From Promethearchaeota archaeon (lineage in GTDB: Archaea; Asgardarchaeota; Lokiarchaeia; Sigyniarchaeales; SOKP01): a DNA stretch of 64,000 nt. The notes under the pieces are model-generated. The model had not been told where the DNA came from. It saw nothing but the letters and a program-made list of their open reading frames with translations, and ran no database searches. A program made the position numbers and the translations under genes. Below, piece after piece: positions 1 through 21,132 of this stretch; the stretch's first letter is position 1, and each line of letters starts with the position of its first letter. Where the stretch lies: the NCBI GenBank assembly GCA_030599585.1, contig JAUVNS010000002.1, positions 1 through 64,000 of the forward strand, written 5' to 3'.

Positions 1-2583
1 ACATACAACCTAAATGGAATTTATGCTAATGCTAATTCTGGTAATATTATGACTACAAACATGATTAACAACAACTTACAAGATGGAATATTAATCTTAA
101 ATTCACATTTAAATAATGTAAGTCGAAACGAGATAGTTGATAATGGAGGATACGGAATCAGACTTATTGACAGTAGTTATAACACATTGGATGATAATAT
201 GGTGTTTAATAATTCCAATGGTATAATAAGTGATGAAGGTGGGTCAAATAATGAGTTCGTAGACACATTTGCACCTGAAATTCTGGCAAGAATTACTAAT
301 CATTCTTTTGAATTGGGGACACCTTCCTTTAATCTCTCTTGGGTTGCGAAGGATGGTAATCCTGCCAATTATACAATCTACCGTAATGATACTGCAATGA
401 ATACGGGGTCGTGGACCTATGATGTTCCGATTACCTACACCGTGGAACCTTTGCCTGTGGGTCTCTACAATTTTACGATAGTTGCCAACGATACTTCTAA
501 CCACAATTCACACCATACGGTGTGGGTTATTATTACCAACCCTATTCTGCCTGTGATTGTTTCTGCCCCCGATGATTGCCTCTATGAATTTGGCACCAAT
601 TCTACTTTGCAGTGGTCGGTTTTTGATGAGAATCCTGCGACTTATGACTTATACATAAATGGTACATTGATAAAATCTGATTCTTGGTCTGCGGTTAGTT
701 CGATTTTCCTCTCACTCTCTGCTGTTATGGATCACCTTTCTCTAGGAATTTGTAATATCACCCTCGTGTTTTGGGATATTGCAGGTTGTTCGATTTCTTC
801 AACGGTGTTTGTTACTGTTATTGACACCACGACGCCTACTATTTCAATTAACTCACCAAACCCAAATGACTTATTAGGTTCGAGTGCTCCTGACTACGAA
901 CTTGCAGTTACAGATGCCAATTTAGATTCTATTTGGTATTCGTTGGACGGAGGTTCTACAAATTCTTCGCTCGTTAGTGCTAATGGAACTATTGATCAGA
1001 CTATGTGGAGTGCTTTAGGTAATGGTACAGTTACAATTCGATTTTATGCCAATGATACAGCGGGAAATTTGAATTATGAAGAAGTAATAGTTTATAAAGA
1101 TATTATCGAACCTTCCATAACCATAATTTCACCTAACCCAAATGACTTATTTGGATCGAGTGCTCCTGACTACGAACTTGCAGTTATAGATGCCAATTTA
1201 GTGTCTATTTGGTATTCGTTGGATGGAGATTCTACTAATTCTACGCTCGTTAGTGCTAGTGGAACTATTGATCAGACTATGTGGAGTGCTTTAGGTAATG
1301 GTACAGTTACAATTCGATTTTACGCAAATGATTCAGTGGGAAATATCGGATTTACTGAAGTAACAATCAGAAAAGATATTACAGCACCAACAATAATTAT
1401 TAATTCACCTGCTCTAAACGAACTGTTCGGAACATCTGCCCCAAATTTTAATGTGGACATTAGAGACACAAACCTAGATATGATGTGGTATACTATCGAT
1501 GGTGGAATAACAAAATATTTCTTTCTAACCAATAGTTCATTAAATTTAGCTGCTTGGTCTGCATTATCCGATGGAATAGTTGGTATTCGGTTCTATGCGA
1601 ATGATACTGCTGGGAATATAAGGTTTTCTGAAGTTGAAATTAGAAAAGATATTACTGCCCCAGTAATAACAATCAATAATCCACAAAACAGCGATGTAAT
1701 TGGAGCCATAGCACCAAATTTTGATATGTCTATTGAGGAACCAAATTTAAATAAGACTTGGTATTCGTTAAATGGAGGGAATAACATAACTTTTACGGGA
1801 CTTACTGGAACAATAAATCAAGCTTTATGGGATGCTTTACCCGAAGGGAACATTATCATTAGATTTTACGCAAATGATTCGGCAGGAAATATCGGATTTG
1901 CTGAAGTAACAATTAGAAAAGATGTTACTGCACCAACAATAACTATTAATTCACCTGTTCTAAACGAGTTATTCGAGACATCTGCTCCAAGTTTTAACGT
2001 TGAGATTTATGATGTAAACCTCGACTCGATGTGGTACACCCTTGATAATGGATTGACAAATACAACTTTTACCACAAATGGGGCAATTTTCCAACTTTTA
2101 TGGGATACTTTACTTGATGGAACGGTAACAATTAGATTTTACGCTAATGATTCTGCTGGAAATATCGGATTTGATGAAGTAACAATTAGAAAAGATGTTA
2201 ATGCCCCAGTAATAACAATCAATAATCCACAAAATAGCGATGTAATTGGAACCACCGCCCCGAGTATTGATATATCTATTGATGAACCAAATTTAGATAA
2301 AACTTGGTATTCGTTAAACGGAGGGAATAACGTAACTTTTACGGGACTTACAGGATCAATTAATCAAGCTTTATGGGATGCTTTATCGGATGGAAATGTA
2401 ATCTTTAGATTCTACGGAAACGATACTTTAGGAAGAATAGGATTTCAAGAAGTTACTATTGTTAAGACGAGTTCTCAACCAACTCCACCGGGGATTCCTG
2501 GATACAACATATTCTTACTTTTAGGAATTGTATCAACTATTGCTGTTATAATCATCAAAAAAAGGCTAAATCGTTTAAATTAA
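1..2583 (+). CDS. Cell-surface protein, 5'-truncated: beta-helix (NosD-like) repeats, tandem Ig-like repeats, C-terminal Loki-CTERM-like anchor
   Basis: The frame is open from base 1 (TYNLNGIYANANSGNI-MTTN...). N/G-rich beta-helix repeats are followed by six ~91-aa repeats with FYANDxAGN. The C-terminus is GIPGY + TM helix + KKR. Confidence 0.8.
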   Translation, partial: TYNLNGIYANANSGNIMTTNMINNNLQDGILILNSHLNNVSRNEIVDNGGYGIRLIDSSYNTLDDNMVFNNSNGIISDEGGSNNEFVDTFAPEILARITNHSFELGTPSFNLSWVAKDGNPANYTIYRNDTAMNTGSWTYDVPITYTVEPLPVGLYNFTIVANDTSNHNSHHTVWVIITNPILPVIVSAPDDCLYEFGTNSTLQWSVFDENPATYDLYINGTLIKSDSWSAVSSIFLSLSAVMDHLSLGICNITLVFWDIAGCSISSTVFVTVIDTTTPTISINSPNPNDLLGSSAPDYELAVTDANLDSIWYSLDGGSTNSSLVSANGTIDQTMWSALGNGTVTIRFYANDTAGNLNYEEVIVYKDIIEPSITIISPNPNDLFGSSAPDYELAVIDANLVSIWYSLDGDSTNSTLVSASGTIDQTMWSALGNGTVTIRFYANDSVGNIGFTEVTIRKDITAPTIIINSPALNELFGTSAPNFNVDIRDTNLDMMWYTIDGGITKYFFLTNSSLNLAAWSALSDGIVGIRFYANDTAGNIRFSEVEIRKDITAPVITINNPQNSDVIGAIAPNFDMSIEEPNLNKTWYSLNGGNNITFTGLTGTINQALWDALPEGNIIIRFYANDSAGNIGFAEVTIRKDVTAPTITINSPVLNELFETSAPSFNVEIYDVNLDSMWYTLDNGLTNTTFTTNGAIFQLLWDTLLDGTVTIRFYANDSAGNIGFDEVTIRKDVNAPVITINNPQNSDVIGTTAPSIDISIDEPNLDKTWYSLNGGNNVTFTGLTGSINQALWDALSDGNVIFRFYGNDTLGRIGFQEVTIVKTSSQPTPPGIPGYNIFLLLGIVSTIAVIIIKKRLNRLN
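835..2460 (+). repeat. Six tandem ~270-bp intragenic Ig-like repeats in A-A-B-C-B-C order
   Basis: Units start PTISINSPNPND / PSITIISPNPND / PTIIINSPALNE / PVITINNPQNSD / PTITINSPVLNE / PVITINNPQNSD. Units 1/2 and 4/6 are near-identical at DNA level. Boundaries are approximate. Confidence 0.85.
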
Positions 2584-2595
2584 ACTTTTTTTGTA

Positions 2596-2615
2596 CGTGA
2601 AATAACCGTTTCACG
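2596..2615. repeat. Dyad site A, CGTGAAA-TAACCG-TTTCACG (7-bp arms, 6-bp asymmetric core)
   Basis: Perfect 7-bp inverted arms read directly, between the surface-protein stop and the pAgo stop. Confidence 0.85.
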
Positions 2616-2619
2616 ATCT

Positions 2620-4098
2620 TTACATATAATTCTTATAAGCCGTTGGTGGCGAAATATCCCTTCCTTTTAATTCTCCCATGATTTTTCCTACTTTTTTTGA
2701 TAATGAAATGGTTACTGGTAATCTTTTACAAAAATCAGTGCTGTTCCAATCTAATTTTGTTAAATTAAGAATATCTCGAGCTAGCGTCTCACTACCACTG
2801 TCAGCTTTCTCTATAATCACTTCAATTGGTTTGGGGATCATGCTTCCGGGATATGTATCAATACAAGGAATATACCCTGTAGTGTAAAGATTGAAGATCT
2901 TTTTTTTATAAGAATTTCTCTCAAATACAGAACCGCGAGCTATCGGGTAATCTGTTGAAGTAATTGCGTTGAAATGACAATTTTCTTTAATGTGAATAAA
3001 ATCTTGGATTTCAATTTTTTGAGCAGCTTTTGAAAATCCTTCGTTTTCTTCTTCAGTATATTTTGATTTTTTATGTACCACGATCCTATTAGGATTATTA
3101 TTACTATGTTGTCTTTTATATAAACCGATTGCTTGTAATAAGATGTCCTCAGCTTGTTCTTCTGTAAGATTGGTTCTTCTTATATCTTCTTCATGTTCAA
3201 CCATTAACTCTAATCCTCTGGCGATCTGGGAATCACCTGTCCTCATGTAAACTTGAGCTATCGCTGCTTTGATAACCACACTGTCTCTTTTATTAATATC
3301 ATAGTAAAAAGAAATTCCAACATGAACTGTCTCGGGATTTAAATCAGCTAATTTCCAAGGAATGCCCGAAAATTTATAATATTGTGCTACTGCATAATTC
3401 CAAGCAATTGAAGCGGGATCTTCCAGATTGCCTCCTTTCAATAGTAAAGTTTCAGGTAGCATTAATTGTGTTGGGATCTTTAGCTCATATCCTAAAACCT
3501 TAATATAGTTATGGAAATCATAAAATAAAGGACGATCTTTTTCATTCATAGAAGTAATTCTCTTTAAATCACTAAATCTTCGAGTACTCAATCGAATTTT
3601 GATATTTTTTGTAAAAGGATTCCTACAAACCTTTAATATCTTTTCGGGAAGTGCAATAATTACAACTGGTGTTGGCGGATTTTGCCCACTCAGGTCTTTT
3701 AAAATTTGTTCAATCTGGTTTGAAAATTCAATAATTTTTTTCTTACGATTAGTCATATTAACAATTTTATCTATAATATGTGGAGAAATTTCTTGACAAT
3801 AATTATCATCTCTTTCCAAATAAAATCCTAAAGGGCCATCTTGATATAATCCTGGAAAATTTACACTTCTAATATTAGAATTTGGAAATGTAACTCCTTC
3901 TATTGAATATTGCATTAAAGAAAGAAAATCACTAGCTGCATTAATTGACTTTTTTGACCCAATTATTCCTATTGGAATCTTTAAATTTTCCAATTCCAAT
4001 CCATTTGGTTTATAATTTAATAATCCTACTCTAGGATCAGTACAGGTAGTTTTATCTTTAAAAATTAAATCCGGTTCTGGTACTAAAAATGATCTCAT
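2620..4098 (-). CDS. Short prokaryotic Argonaute (MID-PIWI), catalytically inactive
   Basis: N-terminal EPDLIF...DPRVGL. PIWI motifs VGISFY, RIVVHKKS, YTTG..TYPG..PKP and LTKLDWNS..LPVT. 492 aa with no N or PAZ domain. The first two tetrad Asp positions are replaced. Confidence 0.9.
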   Translation of the reverse strand: MRSFLVPEPDLIFKDKTTCTDPRVGLLNYKPNGLELENLKIPIGIIGSKKSINAASDFLSLMQYSIEGVTFPNSNIRSVNFPGLYQDGPLGFYLERDDNYCQEISPHIIDKIVNMTNRKKKIIEFSNQIEQILKDLSGQNPPTPVVIIALPEKILKVCRNPFTKNIKIRLSTRRFSDLKRITSMNEKDRPLFYDFHNYIKVLGYELKIPTQLMLPETLLLKGGNLEDPASIAWNYAVAQYYKFSGIPWKLADLNPETVHVGISFYYDINKRDSVVIKAAIAQVYMRTGDSQIARGLELMVEHEEDIRRTNLTEEQAEDILLQAIGLYKRQHSNNNPNRIVVHKKSKYTEEENEGFSKAAQKIEIQDFIHIKENCHFNAITSTDYPIARGSVFERNSYKKKIFNLYTTGYIPCIDTYPGSMIPKPIEVIIEKADSGSETLARDILNLTKLDWNSTDFCKRLPVTISLSKKVGKIMGELKGRDISPPTAYKNYM

Positions 4099-4114
4099 TT
4101 TTGTTTGGCCTCTT

Positions 4115-5536
4115 TTAATTAAAGAACTTATCTATTCTAGTATCATTAACTCCTATTGTTTTAGATTTCCACTTTACTGTATATTCCATCAAAGGTTTAA
4201 TCTTAAATTCATCAAACCAAGGATCTTTTTCTCGAGTAAAATAATCGCTGGTTAAGAAATCACTCCAAAATTCTAACCTAAGTCTCCAGCTTGGATTTCT
4301 ATTCCATTTAGGATTTAAGTACTTTTTATGAAGATTACTCGAGTGATCTCCAGTTATGGTATTAATCCCATTATAAGTAAAAACAAATCTAGGCCAAATA
4401 TATAATCCCATTTTGCCATCAAATTCATCTAATCGAATAAAAATGGATTTATGCTCAACATAGTATAATGTTCCATCGGGCTTATAAATTGGTTTTGTGA
4501 CTGTTTGGAGTTTTCTATTTGGTAAGTTTATTTTAATTGGTTCCACACTGTCTTTTGGTTTTTCATCAATAGGATCATCATAAGCGAAGAAAAAATCACT
4601 TTCCCATCTCCTTAATCCTTTACACCATAAATATCTTCGCAATGATGTATAAAGTAATTCTTTTTTCCTCTGAACATCTAATCTATCCGTCCCTCGATCA
4701 TATATTGGACCTTCAATATGCGGTCTAAAAATATTTAAATTCTTCTCAAATGACCTTACAACAGGTTCGGCTGCTTCGAATCGAGGAATGACAAATTCAG
4801 GAAATCTCTCATTTTTTATACCTCTAACCTTGTCAATTATCGTCTTTTTAAGTTTGAATTTTGATTGAACTTGCCAAAATATTTGTGGATATTCTAATTC
4901 CATAATATTTAAGATTAGTTTATCTTTTTCTCTAATTGGATCTCTACGATTTTTAATTTCTCTTAGCAATCTTTTATGCTGTGAATTAAAATTTTTTCTG
5001 AAAACATCTTCTCTATCTCTTACTCGTTCGACTAAACCAAATAGAGAACAAACCTTTACATCTGTATTTCTAAAAAAACCTAATATTTCTGATTCATTAG
5101 CGGAATTTATTCTATTCAATTTCTTTTCTTCTAAATTTAACTCTTCTTGATCAGTAAACCAATTTAAAATATCTCCTTTTTCTGCTTCTCTAGTTAATAT
5201 TTTTTTAGTATCATTTTTTCTAGAGAATTTATTAGCAAAAATTACGAATTTAAATCTTCTCTCAGGTCTTAGAATTAACCAATTGTAAAAATAATCAAAA
5301 ATTTCACTTCTAAGTTTATCAGATTTAGCAAATATAGAGACTTGAGTGTTTTTTGCTTCTATCCATAAGTTTTCATGCTTATTTTCCATTATTATATCAG
5401 ACAAAGTGCCCTCATTTAAGGAATTTTTAACTAAATGATACCCTTGCGTTTGATAATACCTTGTAATATATTTTTTATAAAGTTCGGAATTATAATTGCG
5501 AGCTTCTCTCTCTGATTCAAAATCTTCCCATGACAT
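4115..5536 (-). CDS. PD-(D/E)XK (Mrr-like) nuclease-APAZ fusion, partner of the short pAgo
   Basis: N-terminal SDIIM...WIEAK. C-terminal APAZ-like IWPRFVFTYNG...RNPSW...FWSDFL. Lies 16 bp upstream of pAgo on the same strand. Confidence 0.75.
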   Translation of the reverse strand: MSWEDFESEREARNYNSELYKKYITRYYQTQGYHLVKNSLNEGTLSDIIMENKHENLWIEAKNTQVSIFAKSDKLRSEIFDYFYNWLILRPERRFKFVIFANKFSRKNDTKKILTREAEKGDILNWFTDQEELNLEEKKLNRINSANESEILGFFRNTDVKVCSLFGLVERVRDREDVFRKNFNSQHKRLLREIKNRRDPIREKDKLILNIMELEYPQIFWQVQSKFKLKKTIIDKVRGIKNERFPEFVIPRFEAAEPVVRSFEKNLNIFRPHIEGPIYDRGTDRLDVQRKKELLYTSLRRYLWCKGLRRWESDFFFAYDDPIDEKPKDSVEPIKINLPNRKLQTVTKPIYKPDGTLYYVEHKSIFIRLDEFDGKMGLYIWPRFVFTYNGINTITGDHSSNLHKKYLNPKWNRNPSWRLRLEFWSDFLTSDYFTREKDPWFDEFKIKPLMEYTVKWKSKTIGVNDTRIDKFFN

Positions 5537-5689
5537 CTTGTTTATTATTTTTAAGTTAATTTTTATAGAATGAAAAATTATTTTCTTCTCATGTTACTTA
5601 TGTTGTATATTAATATATAAAGGTTATGGTAAATTATTTTTAATTGAAAAATTACTAATTTCTAATAAACTAAATCTTTAAATCATAGT

Positions 5690-5715
5690 TTATCGATATA
5701 TTATAATGTCGATAA
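5690..5715. promoter_or_regulatory. Inverted repeat TTATCGA-N12-TCGATAA overlapping a TATA-like element
   Basis: Seen in the divergent intergenic region, 26 bp upstream of the AAA-wHTH ATG. Confidence 0.4.
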
Positions 5716-5741
5716 TGTTGCTAATTTATTAATAAGTTAAT

Positions 5742-6869
5742 ATGCCCGAAAAAAATTCAATCTTTCCAAAAATTAGAAGTTTAGTGATGGATGCTGTAAA
5801 GGAAGGCATTTCAGAGAAAAAGATTTTTTATGATACTTCTCCTAATTGGTATCGATATTTTTATTATGAGAGTAATCCTTTAGATTCATTCACTCCATAT
5901 GAACCTCTTGAAGACCATTTGATTGATTTATTTGTTAATAGAGAAGTTGAAATTCGTATAATTTCAAGTTATTTCGGCAGTATAAAAACTATTCCCTATA
6001 ATATGCATATCGCTATCATAGGTTCTAAAGGAATAGGTAAGCATACAACTTTAAAAATAATATCTAAAATAATTCAAGAATCTTTTCCCGATATTTCTTT
6101 TGAATATTATAACCTTAAAACTGGTAAAGACTTTAAAAATAATTCAAATTTAGATGACTCTGAGATAACAGATTTAGATAAACAAAAACTAGATGTTCGA
6201 CTCATTTCATGTTCGGGTAAAAATAAGTGGTTAATATTAAAAAGAATTGATGAATTTAAGAATAACACAAAAATACTGTTCACAATCTGGCATACGAGGG
6301 ATTATCCTATACAAGATAATTTGAAAATTAATAAAATAATTTACTTTCGTAATTATAATAAAGAGATTATTACTGAAATATTCAAATGTAGAATTGATAA
6401 ATTTCTAAAAGAAAAGGAAGAAAATGAAAACTACATTACTAGTCTTTACAAGAATCTTATTCCCTCCATTATCGAAGCCTTTCAAGGTAATTTAAAAATT
6501 AGTTTTCTTTTTTTTGAACAGATTCATCAATTAGCTAAAATGCAAAATATAAGTGAGATTCCGCAATCCTTAATAGATGAGTTGATGAATAATTATCTAT
6601 TAATAAAAAACCAAAAGATTACTAGTAAAGAAAAAGCGATAATTAATTATCTCATAAGTGCTCAAAATGTTAAATTTATCACTACTAGCGATTTAAGAGA
6701 CAATTTGCACATTGATCGGACAGTAGCGTGGAGATACTTGGAAAATTTAACTAAAAAAAACATATTAAACCGAATAAAATACGGAAATCCCTCAAGATAT
6801 AAAATCAATGACATTTTTCTGAGTTTTTACGAAGATGAATTAAAAAAGAAAGTAATATTTAAAGAATGA
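5742..6869 (+). CDS. AAA+ ATPase-like protein with C-terminal winged HTH (Orc1/Cdc6-like architecture, degenerate)
   Basis: FVNREVEI, Walker A GSKGIGKHT, FQGNLK lid, C-terminal TTSDLRDNLHIDRTVAWRYLENLTKKNIL. No clear Walker B. Confidence 0.6.
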   Translation: MPEKNSIFPKIRSLVMDAVKEGISEKKIFYDTSPNWYRYFYYESNPLDSFTPYEPLEDHLIDLFVNREVEIRIISSYFGSIKTIPYNMHIAIIGSKGIGKHTTLKIISKIIQESFPDISFEYYNLKTGKDFKNNSNLDDSEITDLDKQKLDVRLISCSGKNKWLILKRIDEFKNNTKILFTIWHTRDYPIQDNLKINKIIYFRNYNKEIITEIFKCRIDKFLKEKEENENYITSLYKNLIPSIIEAFQGNLKISFLFFEQIHQLAKMQNISEIPQSLIDELMNNYLLIKNQKITSKEKAIINYLISAQNVKFITTSDLRDNLHIDRTVAWRYLENLTKKNILNRIKYGNPSRYKINDIFLSFYEDELKKKVIFKE

Positions 6870-6882
6870 TGAGTGTGATAAT

Positions 6883-7686
6883 ATGCCATTATTAAGAATC
6901 TTTCATGATGTATACACCAAATCTGAAATAACACAAATAGAAAATAAAATTAAAAATGAGACAGACAATTTTGCTGAATTTGATAATGAAAAGAAATTAG
7001 TGAGACCTGGTTTTCGTAAAAACCAACAAATCTTTAAACCCACATCAAAGGGATATTATATTGCAGAATATTTTGAGATAGATAAAAGGTCGATGCCATC
7101 TTATTATACTGAAATGTATTACTTTAAGAATTTATCTGAGAAAGTTGAATCGGAGGAAAAATTTTATCCCATACTTATTAAAATTTTATTCAATAGAAAA
7201 AAAAAAGTACTATGTTTATATAGTAAACAAATCTTAAGAAATGATCTTGTAAATAACTTAATCAATAAATTAAGAAATAACCATGGTTTAGATTTTAAGA
7301 TGCAACCCCAAAATTATGTTTTTAAAGAAGATGAATTAGATGATCTTGTTAATGCCTTAGATATAAAGGATTATACTGCTATATCTGTTTGGGACAAAGA
7401 TAATAGGGCAATCTTAGAGAACCCTCAGAAAATTACTGAGACTGAAAAATTTATTTCGTTCCTAAATGATACATATAAGGGTAAATGGCATTATTTAAAA
7501 GTACTTTTTGATGATCTGAACATAGAACTTAAAATTAATAATAAAACACAGAAATTTATCACTTTTGTTAATGATTATGTTGATGATGTGCATTTAGCAA
7601 AGGCTGTCGATTTTCTAGTTTCGAAAATTTTCGAAGTTGAGGATTTCAGCGGTTCAAAACAAGCGTTTATTGATTCTTTTCAATGA
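6883..7686 (+). CDS. Hypothetical protein with C-terminal PIP-box-like motif
   Basis: 267-aa ORF 13 bp after the AAA gene; ends KQAFIDSFQ. Confidence 0.6.
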   Translation: MPLLRIFHDVYTKSEITQIENKIKNETDNFAEFDNEKKLVRPGFRKNQQIFKPTSKGYYIAEYFEIDKRSMPSYYTEMYYFKNLSEKVESEEKFYPILIKILFNRKKKVLCLYSKQILRNDLVNNLINKLRNNHGLDFKMQPQNYVFKEDELDDLVNALDIKDYTAISVWDKDNRAILENPQKITETEKFISFLNDTYKGKWHYLKVLFDDLNIELKINNKTQKFITFVNDYVDDVHLAKAVDFLVSKIFEVEDFSGSKQAFIDSFQ

Positions 7687-7788
7687 AAAACATAATCTAA
7701 TTTATTAGAACCATAAAATCTTAGAAAATTGATTATTAATTTTGTCCCTATTTTAATTGTTTATTTTGGATTTAAAATTAAGCGAGAC

Positions 7789-7802
7789 CGGTTATTTCAC
7801 GA
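7789..7802 (-). repeat. Partial dyad site B (CGGTTA-TTTCACGA)
   Basis: 7789-7801 is the exact reverse complement of 2596-2608 (CGTGAAATAACCG). Confidence 0.8.
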
Positions 7803-7818
7803 TAAATTCAAACAAAAC

Positions 7819-7834
7819 AATAACCGTTTCACGA
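7819..7834 (+). repeat. Partial dyad site C (AA-TAACCG-TTTCACGA)
   Basis: 16/16 identical to 2601-2616. Confidence 0.8.
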
Positions 7835-7971
7835 AATTATTGTGATATATCAAACTGAGTAAACCGAAGGATTCATATTTAGTGAACGAATTAAAATCAT
7901 ACACTTAGATATTAATATAAAGACCCAAACGGCAGAATTATTAATAATGAAATCTAATTTTATTTTAAGGA

Positions 7972-9645
7972 GTGTGTAATTTTATGAGACGAGGATTTTT
8001 AAGACGATCTTATGATCAAACTTTTAATTTTGGATTAGGGAATTTCAAATCATTCCAGGAACTACAAAAAATTAATGTTAAACCACTCACTGTTATTTGT
8101 GGTACAAATAATTGTGGTAAAAGTTCGTTAATCCAGAGTATTCTATTATTATCTCAAAGTATTTCATCGTCATCTAGAGAATATCGAGGATTTCCAAGAT
8201 ATTATCATTCGAGGGAGAAAATTAAATATGAAAAATCTTTATATTTTGAGGGAGAATTCTGCCATTTAAGTGATTATGATAATATTATAAACTCTTATAG
8301 TATTGATAAGGAATTAGAATTTGAGTTTAAAGATAGCAATAATAAATTAAAAATAATTTTTTCTAATCCTAAAAGTGAATTATTAGTTGCATATATTAAA
8401 TCTATTATATATGATGGAAATAAATTGAATTTTAGATTAGATGCAATATTAAATAAAGAGGGATCTGTAGATTCCTATTTTTTAACCATGTATGATACCT
8501 ATCTTACAGAACTATGCGATTGCTCTTTTGAATTAGAGCAATTATTTGACAATAAAAAGAGATTCCTTAAAAAATTAAATTTTATAAAGTTTCCCGATTG
8601 GGAGTGTAAAGATGTTAGTATTATCTTCTCAGGCTTTATACCAGAAGATATATTGATTCCAAATAAACCATTATTAAGTTTAATTAAAGAAAAATTAGAA
8701 GAAAATAGAGAAGAAATAATAAATGTACAAAATAAACCCAATGATCTTAAAACTATATTAGAAAGGTTAGAAAAAGCTATATCAGGAAAAGAGAGAAGGC
8801 ATTTTCGATTTTATGATAACTTTTTTAGTATAAGTATTAATAACTCAGATTTTTTAGATTTTTTTTCAAATATTCATTATATTGGGCCATTAAGAAGTGA
8901 TCCACATAGATACTATCAATTTTTTGATATTAAACAATTTAAAATAGGCAATAGAGGTGAATTCACGCCCCAAATACTTACTTTAGAGAGAAATGTAGAA
9001 ATCCCGAAATTTTACACCTATGATATTTTGGGTGATATTTTGAGCTTTAATAAACATGAATCTTTAAGTTTAAAAGACGGTTTAGAACTCTGGTCAAAAA
9101 AACTTGACTTACCAAGTATAGATCCTAAAAAAGTTGAACAAACTTTATTTAAAATTATGGTTAAATTACCTGTAGGTGACAAAACCGTTACACTGCAGGA
9201 CGTTGGTTTTGGAATAAGTCAAATCTTACCTGTTTATGTCGAGAGTCTCCGAATGGAGGAAGGTAATACTTTAATTTTAGAACAACCTGAAATCCACTTA
9301 CATCCAAGTATGCAATCAAAGCTGGCTGATTTTCTTTTAAGTATGGCATATTCAGGTAAGAGATTTATTATAGAAACACATAGTGAACACATTATTAACA
9401 GATTATGTCTGAGAATTGCTCAAGATCCGAAAAATGAAATTAATGATTTAATATCAATGGTCTTTTTAGAGCCCCCGAAAATTAAAAAGAAAAAATATTG
9501 GGGAACGCATATTAAAGAATTAGAAATAAATATATATGGCGAGGTTGAAAATTGGCCCGTAGGTTTTTTTGATGAATCAGATTATGAAAAGATACTTGTT
9601 GCTGCAATCAGTAAGAGGAAGAGAGAAATGGAGGAAAATATATGA
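7972..9645 (+). CDS. ABC-type AAA ATPase (AAA_15/AAA_21-like) with DUF3696-like C-terminus
   Basis: Walker A GTNNCGKSS, signature DVGFGISQ, Walker B/D-loop LILEQPEIHLHP, H-loop ETHSEH, C-terminal WPVGFFDE. The start may be the ATG at 7984. Confidence 0.85.
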   Translation: MCNFMRRGFLRRSYDQTFNFGLGNFKSFQELQKINVKPLTVICGTNNCGKSSLIQSILLLSQSISSSSREYRGFPRYYHSREKIKYEKSLYFEGEFCHLSDYDNIINSYSIDKELEFEFKDSNNKLKIIFSNPKSELLVAYIKSIIYDGNKLNFRLDAILNKEGSVDSYFLTMYDTYLTELCDCSFELEQLFDNKKRFLKKLNFIKFPDWECKDVSIIFSGFIPEDILIPNKPLLSLIKEKLEENREEIINVQNKPNDLKTILERLEKAISGKERRHFRFYDNFFSISINNSDFLDFFSNIHYIGPLRSDPHRYYQFFDIKQFKIGNRGEFTPQILTLERNVEIPKFYTYDILGDILSFNKHESLSLKDGLELWSKKLDLPSIDPKKVEQTLFKIMVKLPVGDKTVTLQDVGFGISQILPVYVESLRMEEGNTLILEQPEIHLHPSMQSKLADFLLSMAYSGKRFIIETHSEHIINRLCLRIAQDPKNEINDLISMVFLEPPKIKKKKYWGTHIKELEINIYGEVENWPVGFFDESDYEKILVAAISKRKREMEENI

Positions 9646-10499
9646 TAAATTGCTTTATAGATCCAATTTTTTTAGCTATTAACAATAATATTTCCACAAA
9701 ACATTATTCTGAAGTGTTATTTCCAATTTTATCAGGTTTCTGTAATAGAATTAAGGATATTGAACAAGAAAAGCAAGAAAGAATCTTTAAATTCAATTTT
9801 TCTTCAGAATTTCTTTTACTCTGTATGAATCAAGATCCTTTCAGATTTGCGAAAAATATTGCATTTAGTCACTTATTTAGAAAATTTTTATCTAAATTTT
9901 TTAAAACCCATAAAAATCCTTCATGTCAAATTAAAAACAGCAACCATTCCAAAATAAAATTTAAATATATAAATAAAAATGTCCCAAAAGAAATTATTGA
10001 TAACTGGAATTTGTTTCTAAATGATTGCAATTCACTAGAGTGTTGTGAAAAAAATTTGATTTTAATTACAAACAGTAAATTAGGTTCAATACAAGATTCT
10101 GGGTATGATGATTTATTTCAAAGAATATCTCAAGATTTATCAGAATGGTTAAACAATCAGACTTTATGTGATTCAGGTATAATACCTCCTAAAACTAAAA
10201 TTGATCCAAAACTAAAACTCGATGGGGATTGGAAACATCATCATGATAAATCACCTCTTTTAAGTAGAATTTTGAATAAAATCTGCAATTCTAATTTTAT
10301 TACAAAAATCATCCCCAAAGCACATGAAAACCCTCCTCATTCACACCGAATTTCAGTCCATACCTCAAACTCAATTAAATTGATAATAAAAGCTAAAAAA
10401 ACGGGAGAAGTTTATATTTTAAAAACAACTGCAAGGAATGTTTCTGAAGTTAATTATATTATCACAGATTTAAAAAAGAATATCCAAGCAATTCAGTAA
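9642..10499 (+). CDS. Hypothetical protein, putative effector of the ATPase
   Basis: ATGA overlap with the ATPase stop. Cys/His-rich, with GDWKHHH near the C-terminus. Confidence 0.6.
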   Translation: MINCFIDPIFLAINNNISTKHYSEVLFPILSGFCNRIKDIEQEKQERIFKFNFSSEFLLLCMNQDPFRFAKNIAFSHLFRKFLSKFFKTHKNPSCQIKNSNHSKIKFKYINKNVPKEIIDNWNLFLNDCNSLECCEKNLILITNSKLGSIQDSGYDDLFQRISQDLSEWLNNQTLCDSGIIPPKTKIDPKLKLDGDWKHHHDKSPLLSRILNKICNSNFITKIIPKAHENPPHSHRISVHTSNSIKLIIKAKKTGEVYILKTTARNVSEVNYIITDLKKNIQAIQ

Positions 10500-10623
10500 T
10501 CTCTATCCAATAAAAATTATTTTTAATAAAATTTTAGATGCAGGAATCTTTAGGTTTTTTGATTTTTTTCACTAAAAGGTCTCTTAATTCCATTTTTTCT
10601 TTCTTTAATATATTATTGAATTT

Positions 10624-10637
10624 CGGTTATTTCACGA
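10624..10637 (-). repeat. Partial dyad site D (CGGTTA-TTTCACGA)
   Basis: 14/14 identical to 7789-7802; intergenic. Confidence 0.8.
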
Positions 10638-10747: not shown

Positions 10748-13720
10748 ATGACAATAGATAGTTATGTAAAGTCTAAAGATACTATTCCTGATTTCAATAT
10801 TGGGGAGATTGTTGAAGCTCGAGATAGATTGTGGCGTATAGATCAAATTCATAAAGTAGAAAAAGAAATTAAAGAAGTCAAGAACAAATTTATTTATTAT
10901 TCTGTTAGCAATATTACAGGTCAGCCATCGTCTCAAGTGTTAATTCCCGATATTGAAATAATTAAAAAATCGGTTGTTCCAAAACCCTCCTCTGAAATTA
11001 TTGGCTCCCCATTATATCAGAAATTATTATTGGACGCAATTAAATTGGACTTAATTTACGGAACAACTTCATTTATCAGCCTTCAAAATTCGAAGGTCAT
11101 TCCAATATCTTATCAAATGGTTCCTGTTTTAATGGCATTAAATTTAAAAAATGTCCGATTGCTGTTAGCTGACGATGTTGGGTTAGGTAAAACTATTGAA
11201 GCGGGACTGATTTTGCAGGAACTCTTAGGACGCAAGAGAATAAATAGAGTTTTATTTGTAACGCCCGCAAATCTTCGAGAACAATGGCAAGCAATACTTA
11301 AAAAGTTCTTTGGAATTGATGCCGTAATTATGTCTCGCAGGAATCGAAGAAAATTAGAATCAGAGTTGTTAGTTGGTGGTAATCCGTGGGGTTACTATAA
11401 TTTTGTTATTACATCCATCGATTATGGTAAGAGACCAGGAGTCAAAGAAGAAATAATTCAGTTTGATTGGGATATGATTGTCATTGACGAGGCTCACAAT
11501 GTAATGCGACCTCATTTAGGCACTGACGACGAAAAATCTAAATCTTTTAAGCAAAGTTATGGTTTCGCAAAATTATTAGCTAATCAAGATAAGTTCCCCC
11601 ATTTTCTTCTGCTATCAGCAACTCCACACAATGGATACAAGGATTCTTTCGTCAGTCTGCTTGAAATGATTAACTCCAAAATTGTTTCGAAAGATTCTTC
11701 AAATAATATTCATATCGATAGAGATCTTGCTATAAGTCACATTTGCCAGCGTAGGCGTGAAGATGTTCAAGATTGGATATTAGAAAGTAAGTATAAAAAA
11801 AGAGTTTTCCCAGATAGGGATTCTGATGAGATATATATCACTCCTTCAGATAAATTTATCGAGACTTTCGAACTAATAAACCAATATTTTGATTTTGTTT
11901 TAACTCGATCTGAAGGTGACCCACTAGAAAGAAGGAAGTTGAACTATTGGACTATACTTCACTTTCATAAACGAGCTATTAGCTCTCCAAACGCTTTAAA
12001 GCGTTCCATTGAAAATCGTTTGGAAGAAGTTAATAATGTTCTAAATAAAAATTATAGAGCTATTGAGGATACGAGCTCTTTTTTATCCATAGATGAAGCA
12101 GCACAATCTGTTATGGATGGCTACGAGACAGATAGATTAACCGAAGAAGAACTCGATCTAAGAAACGATAAACTAATCCTAACTAAAAAGATGGCAGATT
12201 TAAAAAGAGAAAAAGACATGCTCATTGAGATAAAAGAATCGGCATTAGAGTTAATGAAAAGTGACAGAAAAATTATTGAATTATTAGATGTCATTCTTCC
12301 TGAAAGGTTTAAAATTTCTAAAAAGATAATCATTTTCACGAGATATATTCATACTCTTGAATATATTAAGGAACGATTGGAAGAAAAGATAAAAGAAAGC
12401 CCAATGAAATATAAAGATATTGAAGTTTTTCATATACACGGTCAAATGGCATCCCAACTTAGAAAAGACACTTATGATAACTTTTTGAAAGCTAAACAAG
12501 GTATTTTAATATCAACTGATTGCATGGCAGAAGGAATTGATCTACAATTCTCAGCAGATCAAATCATAAATTACGAACTTACTTGGAATCCTAACCGTCT
12601 TGAGCAGAGAAATGGTAGAATCGATAGATTTGGTCAACCTAAAGATATTGTTTATATTAGAACATTAATTTTAAAAGACACTTTAGAAATGGACATTCTG
12701 GAAGTTCTTGTAAAAAAAGCAAATGAAATTAAAAAAGCATATGGCTTCGTACCTGGTTTTTTTGGAGACCCTGAATCTGTAATTGACCATATATTAGCAA
12801 AACGCAAGAAAGAGCGAAAACAGACAACAATGGATAAATGGATCAAATTTTCGAAGGTTTTAGACGATTTAGTTTCAATTTTTTTCTCTGAAAAGAATGT
12901 AAAAGCCATGATGGAGGACTCTTTTTACGGTCATTCTAACATTAACTTAGAAGAAATTGAGCAACGGATGAGGCTAACGGAGGAAAATATTGGAAACGAC
13001 CAAACTTTACTCGCGTTTTTAAAAAGTGCTATTGATTTATATAAAGGTAATATAGAACCCTCAAAAGAAGAAGATCGAATTTTTGAGATTACGCTTCCAA
13101 AAGAAGTACAAAAAGATATCGGTGAGAATTTTGGAGAAAAATATTTAATCACCCCAAACATGGATGTTAGTGCTTCTCGCAACGATGTAGAAGGAATAAA
13201 TTTAAAGAATCCATTAGTTTCTGGACTTGTAGAAAAAGTTAAGAACGAAGCATTTTCGGTTGATAATGAGTTTTATGGCAGAACTGCTGCTTTTCTTAGC
13301 TCTGAGACTAAGAAGGTTTCCGTTTTGTTTTATGCTAAAATAAGATATGTTGTACATACAGAACCAAAAAGCTTAATGGAAGAAATTACTCCTTTAGGAG
13401 TTGATTTATTTAGTGAAACTCGATTGGATAACGCTTTAGTTGATAAGATTTGGAATTCCGAGTGGGAAAATCACGGTAAAAATTTAGTTGAATTAAAAAA
13501 ACATCTTAATAGAGCTCTCAGTATACACAATTTGGAGTCCATGTTCAATGATCTTGCTCACGAAAGGCTGAAGATAATTATCAACGAGCGAAAAGAAATG
13601 ATAAATAATTTGGCGAAACAAGGGATCGCAACGGATCTAGAGGGAATTGAAAAGATTGATGTAGTGGGCGTCGATTTATTAACAATTTCTTTGGTTTATC
13701 CACCCATTAGGGGTACTTAA
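10748..13720 (+). CDS. SNF2-family helicase, DISARM DrmD-like
   Basis: LLADDVGLGKTIEAG, DEAH, LSATPHNG, EGIDLQ, WNPNRLEQRNGRIDRFGQ. Confidence 0.85.
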   Translation: MTIDSYVKSKDTIPDFNIGEIVEARDRLWRIDQIHKVEKEIKEVKNKFIYYSVSNITGQPSSQVLIPDIEIIKKSVVPKPSSEIIGSPLYQKLLLDAIKLDLIYGTTSFISLQNSKVIPISYQMVPVLMALNLKNVRLLLADDVGLGKTIEAGLILQELLGRKRINRVLFVTPANLREQWQAILKKFFGIDAVIMSRRNRRKLESELLVGGNPWGYYNFVITSIDYGKRPGVKEEIIQFDWDMIVIDEAHNVMRPHLGTDDEKSKSFKQSYGFAKLLANQDKFPHFLLLSATPHNGYKDSFVSLLEMINSKIVSKDSSNNIHIDRDLAISHICQRRREDVQDWILESKYKKRVFPDRDSDEIYITPSDKFIETFELINQYFDFVLTRSEGDPLERRKLNYWTILHFHKRAISSPNALKRSIENRLEEVNNVLNKNYRAIEDTSSFLSIDEAAQSVMDGYETDRLTEEELDLRNDKLILTKKMADLKREKDMLIEIKESALELMKSDRKIIELLDVILPERFKISKKIIIFTRYIHTLEYIKERLEEKIKESPMKYKDIEVFHIHGQMASQLRKDTYDNFLKAKQGILISTDCMAEGIDLQFSADQIINYELTWNPNRLEQRNGRIDRFGQPKDIVYIRTLILKDTLEMDILEVLVKKANEIKKAYGFVPGFFGDPESVIDHILAKRKKERKQTTMDKWIKFSKVLDDLVSIFFSEKNVKAMMEDSFYGHSNINLEEIEQRMRLTEENIGNDQTLLAFLKSAIDLYKGNIEPSKEEDRIFEITLPKEVQKDIGENFGEKYLITPNMDVSASRNDVEGINLKNPLVSGLVEKVKNEAFSVDNEFYGRTAAFLSSETKKVSVLFYAKIRYVVHTEPKSLMEEITPLGVDLFSETRLDNALVDKIWNSEWENHGKNLVELKKHLNRALSIHNLESMFNDLAHERLKIIINERKEMINNLAKQGIATDLEGIEKIDVVGVDLLTISLVYPPIRGT

Positions 13721-13722
13721 CA

Positions 13723-16700
13723 ATGGTATCTAAAGGTGCGTTATTAAGAAATATTAGACCAAGTGGGGGGCTATTTACTGAAAATATCCTCTTAAGATTG
13801 CGTGATAACCCTATTCAACTAGAAATTGGAAAAATAGATTCATTTCTCGAAGAAGATACTAAAGAAGAAAGAAAAAAATTAATAGAAAAAAAGCAAATAA
13901 TTTTTGATTGGTGTATTCAAAAATGGGATGAAATATCCCCAAATATAGAAGAATGGTCAATAGAAGATTTAGCAAAAAAATGGTTATTCCCTCTCTTTAC
14001 TCTTTTTGATCATGAAATTGAAGACTTTGAAATAAATAAGGAAAATTTGGACGAGGACAGCATACTAAAAGAATTCAGAATTTCTTATCAATCCCAAGAT
14101 CATAGAGATCCATTCTTTCATTATGTTAGTGTAGATGAAGATTTTGATTCTAACATTGATAGAAATCCCCAGAAGAAATCACATCATAATGTGTGTCAAC
14201 AATTTATAAACTTTAATCCCGAAATAAAATGGCTCTTCCTTTCCAATGGGCGTATTCTACGGATATTAACCAAATATTATCATTCCTATTCGAAAGGGTA
14301 TTTGGAATTTGATTTAGAAAACATTTTCGCAAATCGAGATGAAAGGGAATTTGATACACTCTATTCCATAATTCACATGAGTAGATTTATTCCTGATTAT
14401 AAAGATCATAAATTTTTGATTGATGTATTTCAGAAAGAATCTATTTCTGAAGGTGTTAAGATAGGTGATGCTCTAAGAGATAACATCCATGATGCGATAG
14501 AACTATTAGGAAATGAATTAATCCAACAAAATCCAAGATTTCAGGAATATTTTTTTACAAATGAAATTGATAAAGAAGAATATTATGCTGAACTTTTGAG
14601 GATTATCTATAGGATTATCTTTCTATTATACGCAGAACAGCGAGAAATGTTGCCAATGTTGGATTCTATATATTTTAAAGAATTCTCTCTTTCTTCTCTG
14701 AGGTTATTATCAGAAAAACCAATAAAAGCAGAAAAGAATTACGATTTGTGGAAAAAAATCTTTATCACCTTCAGATTGGTGGATAAGGGCAACGAACTTC
14801 TTGCTGTTAATTGTTTTAATGGGAGCTTGTTTAATAACGATTATTTACCTATAATTGTAAATAATGATCTTAAGATATCGAATGATGTTTTATTAAATAT
14901 AATTAGATTATTAACTACATCCAAGAACTATAATGTGCTTCAAAAAATTAATTTCCTTGAAATTAGTGAAGAAGAAATTGGTGCAATATATGAATCCCTC
15001 CTTGATTATAAACCAGAGTTTGATATCAATTCTCAGTTTAAATTGACTCAAGGGAATGATCGAAAAAGTACAGGATCTTACTATACCCCAAAGAGCATTG
15101 TAGATTTACTAATAGAATCAACATTGGAATCTACAATAAATGAATTAGAATCTCTTCAAGGAGATTCAAATAAAATACTTGAAAGCTTAAAAGACATTAA
15201 AATATGTGATCCTGCATGTGGAGGGGGTACTTTTTTACTTTCTGCTATGGATTTATTAGGAAAAAAAATAGCAGAAATAAATTCTAATCTTGAAATACCC
15301 TCAGAACTTGAGATAAGAGAAGCCAGGAGAGAAGCGCTTCAAAGATGTATTTATGGGGTAGATAAAAACTCGCTCGCAACTGAATTAACTAAGATATCTC
15401 TTTGGTTGCGAGCTTGTGTTAATGATAAACCACTCAATTTTCTTGATAATCACATTAAAAATGGAAATTCTTTAATTGGTTTCGAAATATATAATAACGA
15501 TTTGCAGATAAGACCTGAAAACTTCAAGGCTCCATCAAAAGAGGTTAAAGAACTAAAATTTGATCATAAAAAGCTTACAAATCAGATAAAGAAAGAAGTT
15601 ATTATGAAATCAAAATCTACAAAAAAAATAGTACACATTACATCCTTCATTTCAGAAAAGGAAGATACTATTTCAGATTTGGATGAATTCCAAAATTTAT
15701 TACAAATGAGTGAAACAGACATAAAAGATTTAAAAAAAAAAGAAATTGAATACAACAAATTGCGTAAAAAACAAAATTTCTTGAAATTATTAAATATAGG
15801 AAATTCGATAACCGCGACTTATTTCTGGCCTACTACAGAGCAATTTTTAAAAAATTATCCAAATAATACAGTTTTAGATGAATTTAAAGCGGGGATTCTG
15901 AGTGATAACAACAAAAAAATCTTAAAAAACGCAAATCAAATTGCATATAGAATTAATTTTTTTCATTGGTATTTAGAATTTCCAGAAATTTTCACGAGAA
16001 AAGCAAAAGGATTCGATATAATTATTACTAACCCTCCTTATATAAGTTCAAAGGAGATAATTCTTGAAGAGAAACATTATTATAAAAATCAATATCAATC
16101 AGCCATTCAACAATACGATCTTTATTCATTATTTTTAGAAAGATGTTTTGGATTACTAAAGCAAGGAGGAAGAATGGGATTGATAATTCCCGATTCTTTT
16201 CTAGGACGTAGTAGCTTTGAATTTATAAGATCATTCTTATTGAGTAATTCAATAATCATAAAGATAATTCAAATCAATAATGTATTTACGGATGCAAATG
16301 TTTCAAATGTAATAATCATTTTACAGAAAAATAAACCCTATATTGAACATCAGATTTTATTTTCACGCTACATTGATCTTGAAGATTTTCGAAACAATTT
16401 GTGTGAAAGTGTTAAAATTCCACAAAAGTTTTTATTAGACTTTCCTAAATCTCGGATATTATTTTTAAAAAAGACAGCTCGAAAAATCCTTGAAAAAATA
16501 AAATTAAACTCTTTTCTATTAGGAGCTATAATCGATATTCATAGAGGTGAAGAAATAGGTCGGAAATCAGATAAGGTTAAAGAAAAATCTAGTAAAGAGA
16601 ATCAGAAATTATTAAGAGGAGGAGATGTTAAGAGATATACAATAGATTTTTCAGAAAAATACATTCCAATAACAGCAATAAAAAAAACGGAATTATACTC

Positions 16701-17118
16701 CTCGCCTAAGATTGTAATAAGGCAGCTTGGTGATTCCATTAATGCAATGGTCGATTTGAAAGAAAATTTTGTTACAATACAAGCAATTTATAATGTTAAG
16801 TTAACAGATGACATTTATGATTATTATGCCATTCTGGGGATACTTAATTCAAAAATGATGAATTTTTATTATAATGTAATGTATAAAGAAAAAGAACTAT
16901 TTCCGAGAATATTGTTAGAAAATATTAAAGATTTACCCATTCCCTTAGATTTAAAAGAAAATCAAGAAAAAATTTCAAAGAAGGTTCAACAACTAATTGA
17001 AAAGAAAGAAGAAAATGAAAGCATTGAAAAGTTAGAAACTGAAATTAATAATTTTATTTTTAACTTATACAATTTAGAAATTAATGAAATTGAATATATT
17101 ACGAATGTTATGGATTAG
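13723..17118 (+). CDS. Type IIG-like N6-adenine DNA methyltransferase (DrmMI/Eco57I-like) with TaqI_C-like TRD, copy 1
   Basis: IGAIYESLL, RKSTGSYYTP, DPACGGGTFL, FHWYLEFPEIF, TNPPY, LGILNS. Confidence 0.9.
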   Translation: MVSKGALLRNIRPSGGLFTENILLRLRDNPIQLEIGKIDSFLEEDTKEERKKLIEKKQIIFDWCIQKWDEISPNIEEWSIEDLAKKWLFPLFTLFDHEIEDFEINKENLDEDSILKEFRISYQSQDHRDPFFHYVSVDEDFDSNIDRNPQKKSHHNVCQQFINFNPEIKWLFLSNGRILRILTKYYHSYSKGYLEFDLENIFANRDEREFDTLYSIIHMSRFIPDYKDHKFLIDVFQKESISEGVKIGDALRDNIHDAIELLGNELIQQNPRFQEYFFTNEIDKEEYYAELLRIIYRIIFLLYAEQREMLPMLDSIYFKEFSLSSLRLLSEKPIKAEKNYDLWKKIFITFRLVDKGNELLAVNCFNGSLFNNDYLPIIVNNDLKISNDVLLNIIRLLTTSKNYNVLQKINFLEISEEEIGAIYESLLDYKPEFDINSQFKLTQGNDRKSTGSYYTPKSIVDLLIESTLESTINELESLQGDSNKILESLKDIKICDPACGGGTFLLSAMDLLGKKIAEINSNLEIPSELEIREARREALQRCIYGVDKNSLATELTKISLWLRACVNDKPLNFLDNHIKNGNSLIGFEIYNNDLQIRPENFKAPSKEVKELKFDHKKLTNQIKKEVIMKSKSTKKIVHITSFISEKEDTISDLDEFQNLLQMSETDIKDLKKKEIEYNKLRKKQNFLKLLNIGNSITATYFWPTTEQFLKNYPNNTVLDEFKAGILSDNNKKILKNANQIAYRINFFHWYLEFPEIFTRKAKGFDIIITNPPYISSKEIILEEKHYYKNQYQSAIQQYDLYSLFLERCFGLLKQGGRMGLIIPDSFLGRSSFEFIRSFLLSNSIIIKIIQINNVFTDANVSNVIIILQKNKPYIEHQILFSRYIDLEDFRNNLCESVKIPQKFLLDFPKSRILFLKKTARKILEKIKLNSFLLGAIIDIHRGEEIGRKSDKVKEKSSKENQKLLRGGDVKRYTIDFSEKYIPITAIKKTELYSSPKIVIRQLGDSINAMVDLKENFVTIQAIYNVKLTDDIYDYYAILGILNSKMMNFYYNVMYKEKELFPRILLENIKDLPIPLDLKENQEKISKKVQQLIEKKEENESIEKLETEINNFIFNLYNLEINEIEYITNVMD

Positions 17119-17136
17119 AAATAAAGGAAATAAAAA

Positions 17137-20100: not shown

Positions 20101-21132
20101 CCATCTTTTAAGAGTAAAAAAGATTATCACTTATTAAAAAAAATATATGATGAAGCATCCATATTGATAAAAAGAGATCCAAACTCAGGAGAAATTATTG
20201 ATAATCCTTGGGATTTTCAATTTAAAAGGATGATAGACATGTCGCTTGATTCAAAACATTTCCTAACCAAAAATGATCTAGAGCGTTTAGGTGCTTTTCC
20301 CTTTAAAAAGAATAATATTGGTTCAACATGGATTGATAAAGAAAAAAGAAAATTCCTTCCATTATACGAAGGTCGGATGATAGGTCAATATAATCATAGA
20401 TTAAATTCAATGGATTTTGCACAAGAAGGTAAAAAAAGAAAAGCTAAATCAATTGGAACTGAAGAAGAAGAATATAAAAATCCTAATTACTCGGCAATAC
20501 CTAATTATTGGATAAATGAAGAAATTGTCAATGATAGAATAGAAGAAAATTTTACTAAAAATTGGTTTATTGGTTATAGAGATATCATCGGATATGAGAG
20601 ATTTTTCATTTCTACAGTAATACCTAAAGTTGCCGTTGGGAATAAAATAATATTGTTATTATCTAATAAGAACCCAGAATTGTTATGTTGCTTGCTTGCT
20701 AACTTAAATTCTATAGTTTTTGATTATGCCATAAGCCAAAAAATTTCAGGAATGAGTCTAAACCAATTTATCGTTGATCAATTACCTGTCTTTTCACCAA
20801 ATAAATATAATAAAAAAATTAAACAAATTATTAAATCAAAAATATCCAAGTTAATATTTGTTTCTTATGATCAAAAAAAATTTGCAAACGATTTAGGTAT
20901 TGATCGAGAACCCTTTGAATGGAATTTATCAGATAGGGAAATCCTAATTTCAGAATTAGAAGCAATTTTGGCTCATTTATATAATATAGAAAGAGATAAT
21001 TTGATTTATATTCTTAATACATTTAAATTATTAAAAAAAAAAGAAATTGATAAGTATAATGAATATAGATCTATGAGATTAATTATAGAAGCATATGATA
21101 AATATTCAAAACAAAAGGAGTTGTTTGAATAA
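17137..21132 (+). CDS. Type IIG-like N6-adenine DNA methyltransferase (DrmMI-like), copy 2
   Basis: Same core motifs but NPPW. Different TRD (FNPNTLTCPSF, LPLYEGRMI, LLANLNSIVFDY). Confidence 0.9.
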   Translation: MASKSALLRNIRPSGGLFTENILLRLRDNPNQLKIGKIDSFLKEDTKEERKKLTDKKQIIFDWCIQKWDEISPNIEEWSIEDLAKKWLIPLFTLFDHEIEDFEINKENLDEDSILKEFRISYQSRDHINPFFHYVSVNEDFDSKNDRNPQKKSHHNVCQQFINFNPEIKWLFLSNGRILRILTKYYHSYSKGYLEFDLENIFANRDEREFNTLYSIIHSSRFNSKIEDDSLLIDEFQKDSIIEGVKIGDTLRDNVENALELLGNELIQQNLDKIDLDKIDVNEFYAELLRIIYRIIFILYAEQRDMLPGAGSLYFEQFSLSSLRIRAEKPIKAEKNYDLWNKMLLTFNLVRDGNSLLGVNSYNGSLFKEDNLRIILKNGMKISNDIVLKVIRLLTTSANHKVRQRINFLEVSEEEIGAIYESLLDFKPYISSTSQFQLIEGTERKSTGSYYTPKALIDILIRTTLEPLVEDRLIKIVDDGHARESAILSIKVCDPACGGGTFLLSALDYLGKRLAEVRTILDSPLEGDLREARRDVLQHCIYGVDMNPLAVELAKISLWLRACVKDKPLNFLDNHIKCGNSLIGLGEKIEIDKINPNAFETISGNKATGIPPENKRLKSKAREIIKKEINERNKQGKTSLITSFFTERRTADICSAKFKEIIYMPETDPNKIKEKEQKYEVLRLNENYQQALNEAHIWTSTFFWPFEGDSLGEIPRYTTIEQLRDKIVDPELDNLMKKINNITKENQFFHWYIEFPEVFSSERGGFDCILTNPPWEALELKESEFFTGLDDEILNAANQSERRKLIKSLREKAPKLFIEYMNAWRSMKKLGHFLRKSGLYELSAKGTINTYAIFVERCWNIINPNGYAGMITPTGIIMNFYMQELFQAFVQKKSIMSIFDFKNKKGIFKIHRDYRFCLITLAGKKIVKDIIPMVFYSLDPFEIQEYLSLIIENKKDLINKVKKLPDDHKLILLQQQDFEVFNPNTLTCPSFKSKKDYHLLKKIYDEASILIKRDPNSGEIIDNPWDFQFKRMIDMSLDSKHFLTKNDLERLGAFPFKKNNIGSTWIDKEKRKFLPLYEGRMIGQYNHRLNSMDFAQEGKKRKAKSIGTEEEEYKNPNYSAIPNYWINEEIVNDRIEENFTKNWFIGYRDIIGYERFFISTVIPKVAVGNKIILLLSNKNPELLCCLLANLNSIVFDYAISQKISGMSLNQFIVDQLPVFSPNKYNKKIKQIIKSKISKLIFVSYDQKKFANDLGIDREPFEWNLSDREILISELEAILAHLYNIERDNLIYILNTFKLLKKKEIDKYNEYRSMRLIIEAYDKYSKQKELFE

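Follow-up and report, generated by a model that had tools for sequence, protein, structure and literature searches.

The first 64 kb of contig C24 (hereafter the window) in a 4.85-Mb, 52-contig assembly of a Promethearchaeota archaeon (genome G000; same-family genome records carrying this title are Loki-type Asgard archaea) contain an island of defence genes, including a short prokaryotic Argonaute, that is divided by recurrent copies of a short DNA site. We consider it very likely that this island belongs to a recombination-based cassette system. An earlier reading of the window alone (the original prediction) had proposed that a recombinase acting in trans exchanges and inverts cassettes at these sites, and this is supported by polar cassette arrays, by junctions swapped between the core and the arm of the site and by contigs resembling alternative isoforms; for the enzyme we infer a candidate below. 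Judging from sequence comparison, the cassette platform seems real and apparently active, and would add a new architecture to the known tyrosine recombinase gene-capture systems.

The four sites predicted in the window (A, 2596-2615; B, 7789-7802; C, 7819-7834; D, 10624-10637) are all present and read as described: they lie outside genes, share the right arm and an A next to it, alternate in core orientation from A to D, and B and C are separated by 16 bp. Site A is a complete palindrome, here termed the hub, whose arms consist of 7 invariant and 4 partly conserved positions, and B, C and D are half-sites with the same core and a single arm. No consensus for a second arm is found to the left of the half-sites, and we saw no ends common to the cassettes other than core and arm. 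Apart from B, C and D, the genome holds no one-armed copy with the window core; about 0.13 would be expected in it by chance (0.0002 in 8 kb). The complete palindrome is also present elsewhere, 11 further perfect copies being found in the genome (12 versus 0.014 expected); each of the 12 has its own core and all have a 6-bp spacer, with no perfect palindrome in the genome for spacers of 0-5 or 7-15 bp. Of 42 genomes of the genus, 22 contain half-sites with the window core in one orientation or the other (two matches inside genes look like chance), one form of these half-sites taken alone is present in 41 of 105 genomes of the family, and 344 of 346 sites are outside genes. No complete hub was found in viral contigs, where a 14-mer gave 116 single matches that we take as chance.

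A scan of the genome and its relatives, proposed as a check of the original prediction, showed that half-site arrays recur and that their arms are polar around hubs. The complete site with the window core was found at 93 metagenome loci, 80 of which were analysed for arms, flanks and neighbours; these loci are related and partly redundant, a caution against reading the counts that follow as independent events. Around the 80 hubs, arms point away from the hub in every case (94/94; right-hand arms 52/52 on the plus strand, left-hand arms 42/42 on the minus strand). In the half-site arrays of the genus genomes, neighbouring pairs are always on the same strand (36/36). The flanks differ at nearly every one of the 80 hubs, and for this reason no empty allele of site A could be found. 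The array of G243, on a 300-kb contig, spans 46 kb around one window-core hub, with 6 arms leftward and 17 rightward; within it lies another complete palindrome, whose core differs (L484:14314-14333). Core orientation depends on rank from the hub, the first site being mostly inverted (37/39 to the right, 18/26 to the left) and the second mostly direct (14/17 and 13/14), and the window follows this alternation exactly. Farther out the alternation is weaker (167 of 241 neighbours alternate). Among the 241 segments, 32 are non-coding with a length of 134-140 bp, and in 31 of these the core order is the same; the 32 fall in 16 sequence families (examples are L370, L383, L391 and L499), one of which is common to several genera.

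Near the hubs, the cargo is rich in restriction, Thoeris, HepT/nucleotidyltransferase and OLD/PARIS-like genes, and the outer arrays also hold toxin-antitoxin-like pairs and metabolic genes, so that the predicted defence array is mostly, not only, one of defence. Site A had been taken for the start of the island. The G+C content does fall there (from 0.36 to 0.28), but in a relative (G031) the gene to the left of A has a homologue, 86% identical, that stands behind a half-site, and A is therefore probably a hub in the middle of a two-sided array rather than an island edge. On the same grounds the leftward part probably continues beyond this contig, which begins at window base 1, so that DNA farther left is not in it; the left gene (49..2583) is probably the first cassette of this leftward array. 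One array with a hub and spacers, sharing a cassette gene with a Loki array, is in a record binned as Patescibacteria (L502:2600-4975), most likely a misbinned contig.

Several kinds of junction show that DNA has been exchanged at these sites. One left flank plus core is found joined to different right flanks, and the core therefore travels with the cassette end. Two of the palindromes other than the hub provide empty and filled alleles. The first has no insert in G034 and G004 but an 8.4-kb one in G002, where the distal site consists of the cassette core followed by the arm and flank of the target; the second is empty in G016 and carries a 3.5-kb insert in G000. In both cases the crossover lies between core and arm. 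At three junctions the distal and target cores agree in the 1-3 bases adjacent to the arm and little otherwise, a pattern that fits exchange of one strand at the edge of the core, as reported for IMEX (integrative mobile elements exploiting Xer; PMC5357621). In three contigs, identical DNA runs outward from the left arm of the hub and from a right-hand site with inverted core (76/76, 102/102 and 110/110 positions), and in two pairs of contigs, each from a single assembly, one flank is joined to different sites (110/110 and 283/287). Such junctions are the assembly signature that would be expected of coexisting inversion or exchange isoforms. Contig ends also fall within 125 bp of a hub more often than expected (20/66 versus 5.6).

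A mechanism can be proposed on this basis, in which a recombinase would bind the 7-11 bp arm and a cassette would open with an arm and close with a variable AT-rich stretch and the 6-bp core. The two-armed hub would recombine with one-armed sites in a core-dependent manner. With a core in the same orientation the outcome would be integration or excision, and with an inverted core it would be inversion, by which the hub would move along the array and the contents of its two sides be swapped. Directly repeated neighbours would be lost next to the hub, leaving alternating cores there. The likely mobile circles would be two-segment units, either two genes or a gene and a spacer of about 137 bp. 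Because spacer length is constant while the sequence varies, the spacer may serve as an adaptor of about 13 helical turns, allowing one gene to move with the alternation kept.

The 11 other palindromes lie among ordinary genes at loci that are mostly conserved in relatives and mostly empty. All 36 sampled genomes of the genus have palindromes (3-14 each; 0 for the reversed control). Their cores recur across species, and where flanks were compared, a given locus is marked by a core that is unchanged or has drifted slightly. Multiple copies are also present in some distant Asgard families (11-13 near-matches versus 1 for the control), and three single-contig genomes of a sister family (G044, G050 and G055) have none above control. 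In G011 the same core occurs twice, on different contigs with different neighbours (L071:3307 and L072:7659), and in G004 two cores are duplicated, mostly at contig ends; these duplicates are candidate allelic variants or insertion ends. We consider the 11 palindromes candidate multiple dif-like sites. They would bind the same enzyme as the hub, their different cores barring recombination with each other or with the hub, and would take cassettes rarely, through a match of 1-3 bp next to the arm.

As had been claimed, there is no recombinase in the window, and no tyrosine recombinase was found in the 80 hub loci or in 100 kb of G243. G000 encodes two tyrosine recombinases, both on contigs other than that of the window, and no others were detected in it by motif or by phmmer. 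One (G000:C31:928-1854) is an orthologue of XerA with an intact catalytic set, its best solved relatives being XerA and XerD. The other (G000:C32:210008-210931) lies in an element-like region at a contig end (L002, G000:C32:198781-213232), with a small DNA-binding-like protein upstream. XerA is near-universal in the genus and is the only tyrosine recombinase found in the array-rich genomes G014, G018, G034, G030, G028 and G063. Of 19 genomes of the genus, 11 have a palindrome 1.2-5.5 kb upstream of xerA, a degenerate one lies 1.35 kb upstream in G163, and in a distant family one is found about 6 kb downstream; this linkage reflects shared ancestry, not many events. Just upstream of xerA there is also an inverted repeat with a 10-bp centre (L001:883-906), kept in nearly all of the 19 genomes and without another perfect copy in G000, which is a possible regulator site for xerA. 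The enzyme would most likely be this housekeeping XerA, and the other palindromes most likely its dif-like sites; we regard the hub-and-cassette model with XerA as enzyme as probable, with some reservation.

The same cassette system could instead be served by another enzyme, either a tyrosine recombinase of a mobile element present only transiently or a divergent one missed by PF00589, with the dispersed palindromes as landing pads or as borrowed sites of another chromosome protein. The second, element-type recombinase of G000 has counterparts in some relatives, XerA is kept in genomes that have no palindrome, and the arm is unlike known dif arms, all of which suit this alternative. The lack of any recombinase near an array, the many array-rich genomes with XerA alone and the linkage of the palindrome to xerA speak against it, and conservation of sites at 10-12 loci would be easier with a resident enzyme; we judge it rather unlikely, if a serious contender.

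Several observations weigh against the XerA-served cassette system as we have described it. XerA proteins 48-53% identical, with similar recognition helices, are present in G044, G050 and G055, which have no excess of palindromes, and recognition helices fail to separate genomes with and without the palindrome. In G070 and G083 the palindrome is present and XerA was not found with the queries used. The inner arm differs from that of the Pyrococcus dif site (PMC2958812), and dif has been described as single-copy per chromosome (PMC8371274), against about 12 sites here. Duplicated cassettes could also give isoform-like contigs. Finally, the four-gene cargo of the window occurs in G196 at 84% identity with no sites at its ends, and no cryptic core was found in that copy at the position equivalent to B. 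Birth of cassettes by inversion with cryptic cores would predict an excess of armless cores near hubs, where their density (0.15 per kb) is within the range of control hexamers. The model therefore leaves unexplained how a gene first acquires cassette ends. We put forward only tentatively the widest version of the XerA model, in which dif has expanded into about 12 mutually incompatible sites per chromosome served by XerA, one core has become a family-wide standard for exchange, the hub walks through a two-sided defence array by inversion, and adaptors of about 137 bp let single genes move while the array stays stable.

Target-specific transposition would dispense with site-specific recombination altogether, insertion at an arm duplicating 7-8 bp so that the repeated arm would be a target-site duplication and the core an element end. 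Empty and filled alleles alone cannot tell a shared arm from a duplicated target, and under transposition the distal core need not match that of the target. Such an element end, however, would need two exact reverse-complement forms alternating with rank; inversion-like contigs exist, and we saw neither a transposase common to the arrays nor shared cassette ends other than core and arm, making transposition very unlikely. The idea of a shared transcription-factor operator controlling the defence genes, which the original prediction already thought a poor fit, is hardly credible, for although a palindrome with a free 6-bp spacer, present in 12 copies and conserved in relatives, also has the shape of an operator, 7 of the 12 lie between converging gene ends, intervals that make up 13.8% of intergenic length, and 1 lies between diverging gene starts, half-sites, unlike operators, conserve the spacer, arm polarity follows the hub rather than gene direction, and the exchange of flanks at the site contradicts it.

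The features of the window and the dispersed palindromes are given in Table 1, where profile searches bear out the predicted gene labels (short pAgo with REase-APAZ, NTPase with winged helix-turn-helix (wHTH), and AAA_15/DUF3696 ATPase with its partner). The filler between B and C is probably a shrunken cassette or spacer, the shrinkage itself being suggested by its rank in the array. Between D and the end of the 64 kb, the window scan found no further intergenic site with the window core, and lacking a closing site, the DISARM-like block that follows D is not established as a cassette.

Table 1. Features of the window (positions 1 to 64,000) and dispersed palindromes of the same genome
Feature	Position	Strand	Remarks
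Repeat-rich surface-type protein gene	49..2583	+	Homologue in G031:C157 behind core-plus-arm half-site
Site A, hub, 11-6-11 palindrome	2592..2619	none	Core 2603-2608; invariant 7-bp inner arms 2596-2602 and 2609-2615
Short prokaryotic Argonaute, cassette 1	2620..4098	-	Pfam Piwi 1.6e-07; PADLOC pAgo_I 3.6e-116
REase-APAZ, partner of the Argonaute, cassette 1	4115..5536	-	PADLOC Aga_REase_Archaea 5.1e-23
P-loop NTPase-like protein with C-terminal wHTH, cassette 1	5742..6869	+	Weak Pfam matches below cut-off; alongside the Argonaute pair in G196
267-aa protein, cassette 1	6883..7686	+	Matches no known family in profile searches
Site B, half-site, core inverted relative to hub, closes cassette 1	7789..7802	+	Sequence match; in 32 of 33 hubs the first neighbour to the right has an inverted core
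Filler between B and C, 19 bp (32 bp arm to arm)	7802..7820	none	At the rank usual for 134-140 bp spacers
Site C, half-site, hub-oriented core	7821..7834	+	Sequence match
AAA_15/DUF3696 ATPase, cassette 3	7972..9645	+	Matches to NsnB, HEC-03B and PDC-M55A-like profiles
285-aa partner overlapping the ATPase gene, cassette 3	9642..10499	+	One weak C-terminal match
Site D, half-site, inverted core, final site of rightward array	10624..10637	+	Sequence match
DISARM-like block: drmD, two methyltransferases, large helicase	10748..26973	+	Follows last arm; no closing site
Further perfect palindromes (11), each with own core	G000 contigs C1, C8, C9, C11, C20 (two), C22, C26, C34 (two), C40		For example L029:1501-1520

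Within the DISARM-like block, two Eco57I-type methyltransferase genes stand in tandem (13723-21132), their products near-identical over the first 210 residues and diverged at the C-termini (58% over 900 residues), apparently a duplication with two specificities. The helicase that follows (21133-26973; 1946 residues) has a DEAD-box, an MrfA zinc domain and a C-terminal Swt1-like HEPN domain, and appears to be a DrmA-like protein fused to a ribonuclease-type domain. Farther on (27639-48493) there are defence-like genes without sites of this system, for a TPR protein, SNF2 and SF1 helicases, NOV_C, a Csa3-like wHTH regulator and a PLD nuclease; between the two halves of the island, an open reading frame with a strong ribosome-binding site would encode a very basic protein of 39-42 residues (40120-40248, minus strand). 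A scan for bacterial promoters gave chance level only.

The Argonaute module itself (2619-7705) is 83-90% identical in another genus and only 33% identical to the homologue in the only other genome of its own genus that has one. As identity is higher in the other genus than in its own, these sequences suggest transfer of the module between genera. The start of the shared DNA coincides with the outer limit of the hub arm, where the stop codon also lies.

The system offers a concrete and testable route by which archaeal relatives of eukaryotes could assemble and reshuffle their antiviral arsenals, Argonaute included. Since the junction motif delimits cassettes, defence genes of no known family could be listed directly, as attC allows for integrons, and the motif explains why assemblies break at these islands. 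A set of a dozen natural sites that share an arm sequence but differ in core would be relevant to the resolution of archaeal chromosome dimers, and would parallel in nature the orthogonal lox sites made by engineering.

In the papers searched, we found no description of this site or system. One close likeness is to the pdif modules of Acinetobacter, which are moved by XerCD (PMC6449649, PMC11705084, PMC12907356). These also carry adaptive genes and toxin-antitoxin pairs between sites of the 11-6-11 type, depend on a recombinase in trans, have neighbouring sites inverted and form linear islands of several modules, with compatibility set by the central region (PMC11705084). pdif sites, however, are two-armed for two enzymes and found mainly on plasmids, whereas the present system has a single symmetric hub, every other site carries only one arm, which points away from the hub, one invariant core is used in both orientations, and spacers of fixed length recur. 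The R64 shufflon (Rci recombinase, sfx sites; PMC11852207) has asymmetric sites in which the core and right arm are conserved and the left arm varies, and artificially symmetric sfx sites permit both inversion and excision (PMC11852207), matching the reaction we propose for the hub. It differs in that sfx, with a 7-bp core and 12-bp arms, is located inside pilV next to rci and supports inversion only, while the sites described here are intergenic, have no adjacent enzyme and do not swap gene 3' ends, and their cargo is gained and lost, cassette content varying between genomes and alleles being empty or filled.

Integrons, including archaeal clusters of attC sites lacking integrases (CALINs; 10.1101/2022.02.06.479319), likewise have a polar cassette array extending from a single complete site, cargo rich in defence genes and toxin-antitoxin pairs, and cassettes common across genera. 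In contrast, the present system has no IntI, no attC-like folding at its sites (mean z -0.15 for 80 sites) and no GTTRRRY box (0/208), and its array is two-sided, with multi-gene cassettes in either orientation. The original prediction of an integron- or pdif-like array thus stands in that the system works like both, but it lacks the features that define each. The site is also close to archaeal XerA/dif and IMEX (PMC2958812, PMC5357621) in its inverted 11-bp arms around a 6-bp spacer and proposed use of a single recombinase, and in the donor sites of those elements, which have one degenerate arm and insert despite a partly mismatched core. It differs in having another arm sequence and about 12 sites per genome with different cores rather than one dif, and many small cassettes rather than a phage or one island. 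Its one-armed sites and the absence of an adjacent enzyme and of an attC fold place it outside pdif, shufflon and integron, and the many sites per chromosome depart from a single-copy dif; if dif has expanded as suggested above, the system would be a type of gene-capture platform separate from integrons, pdif modules and shufflons.

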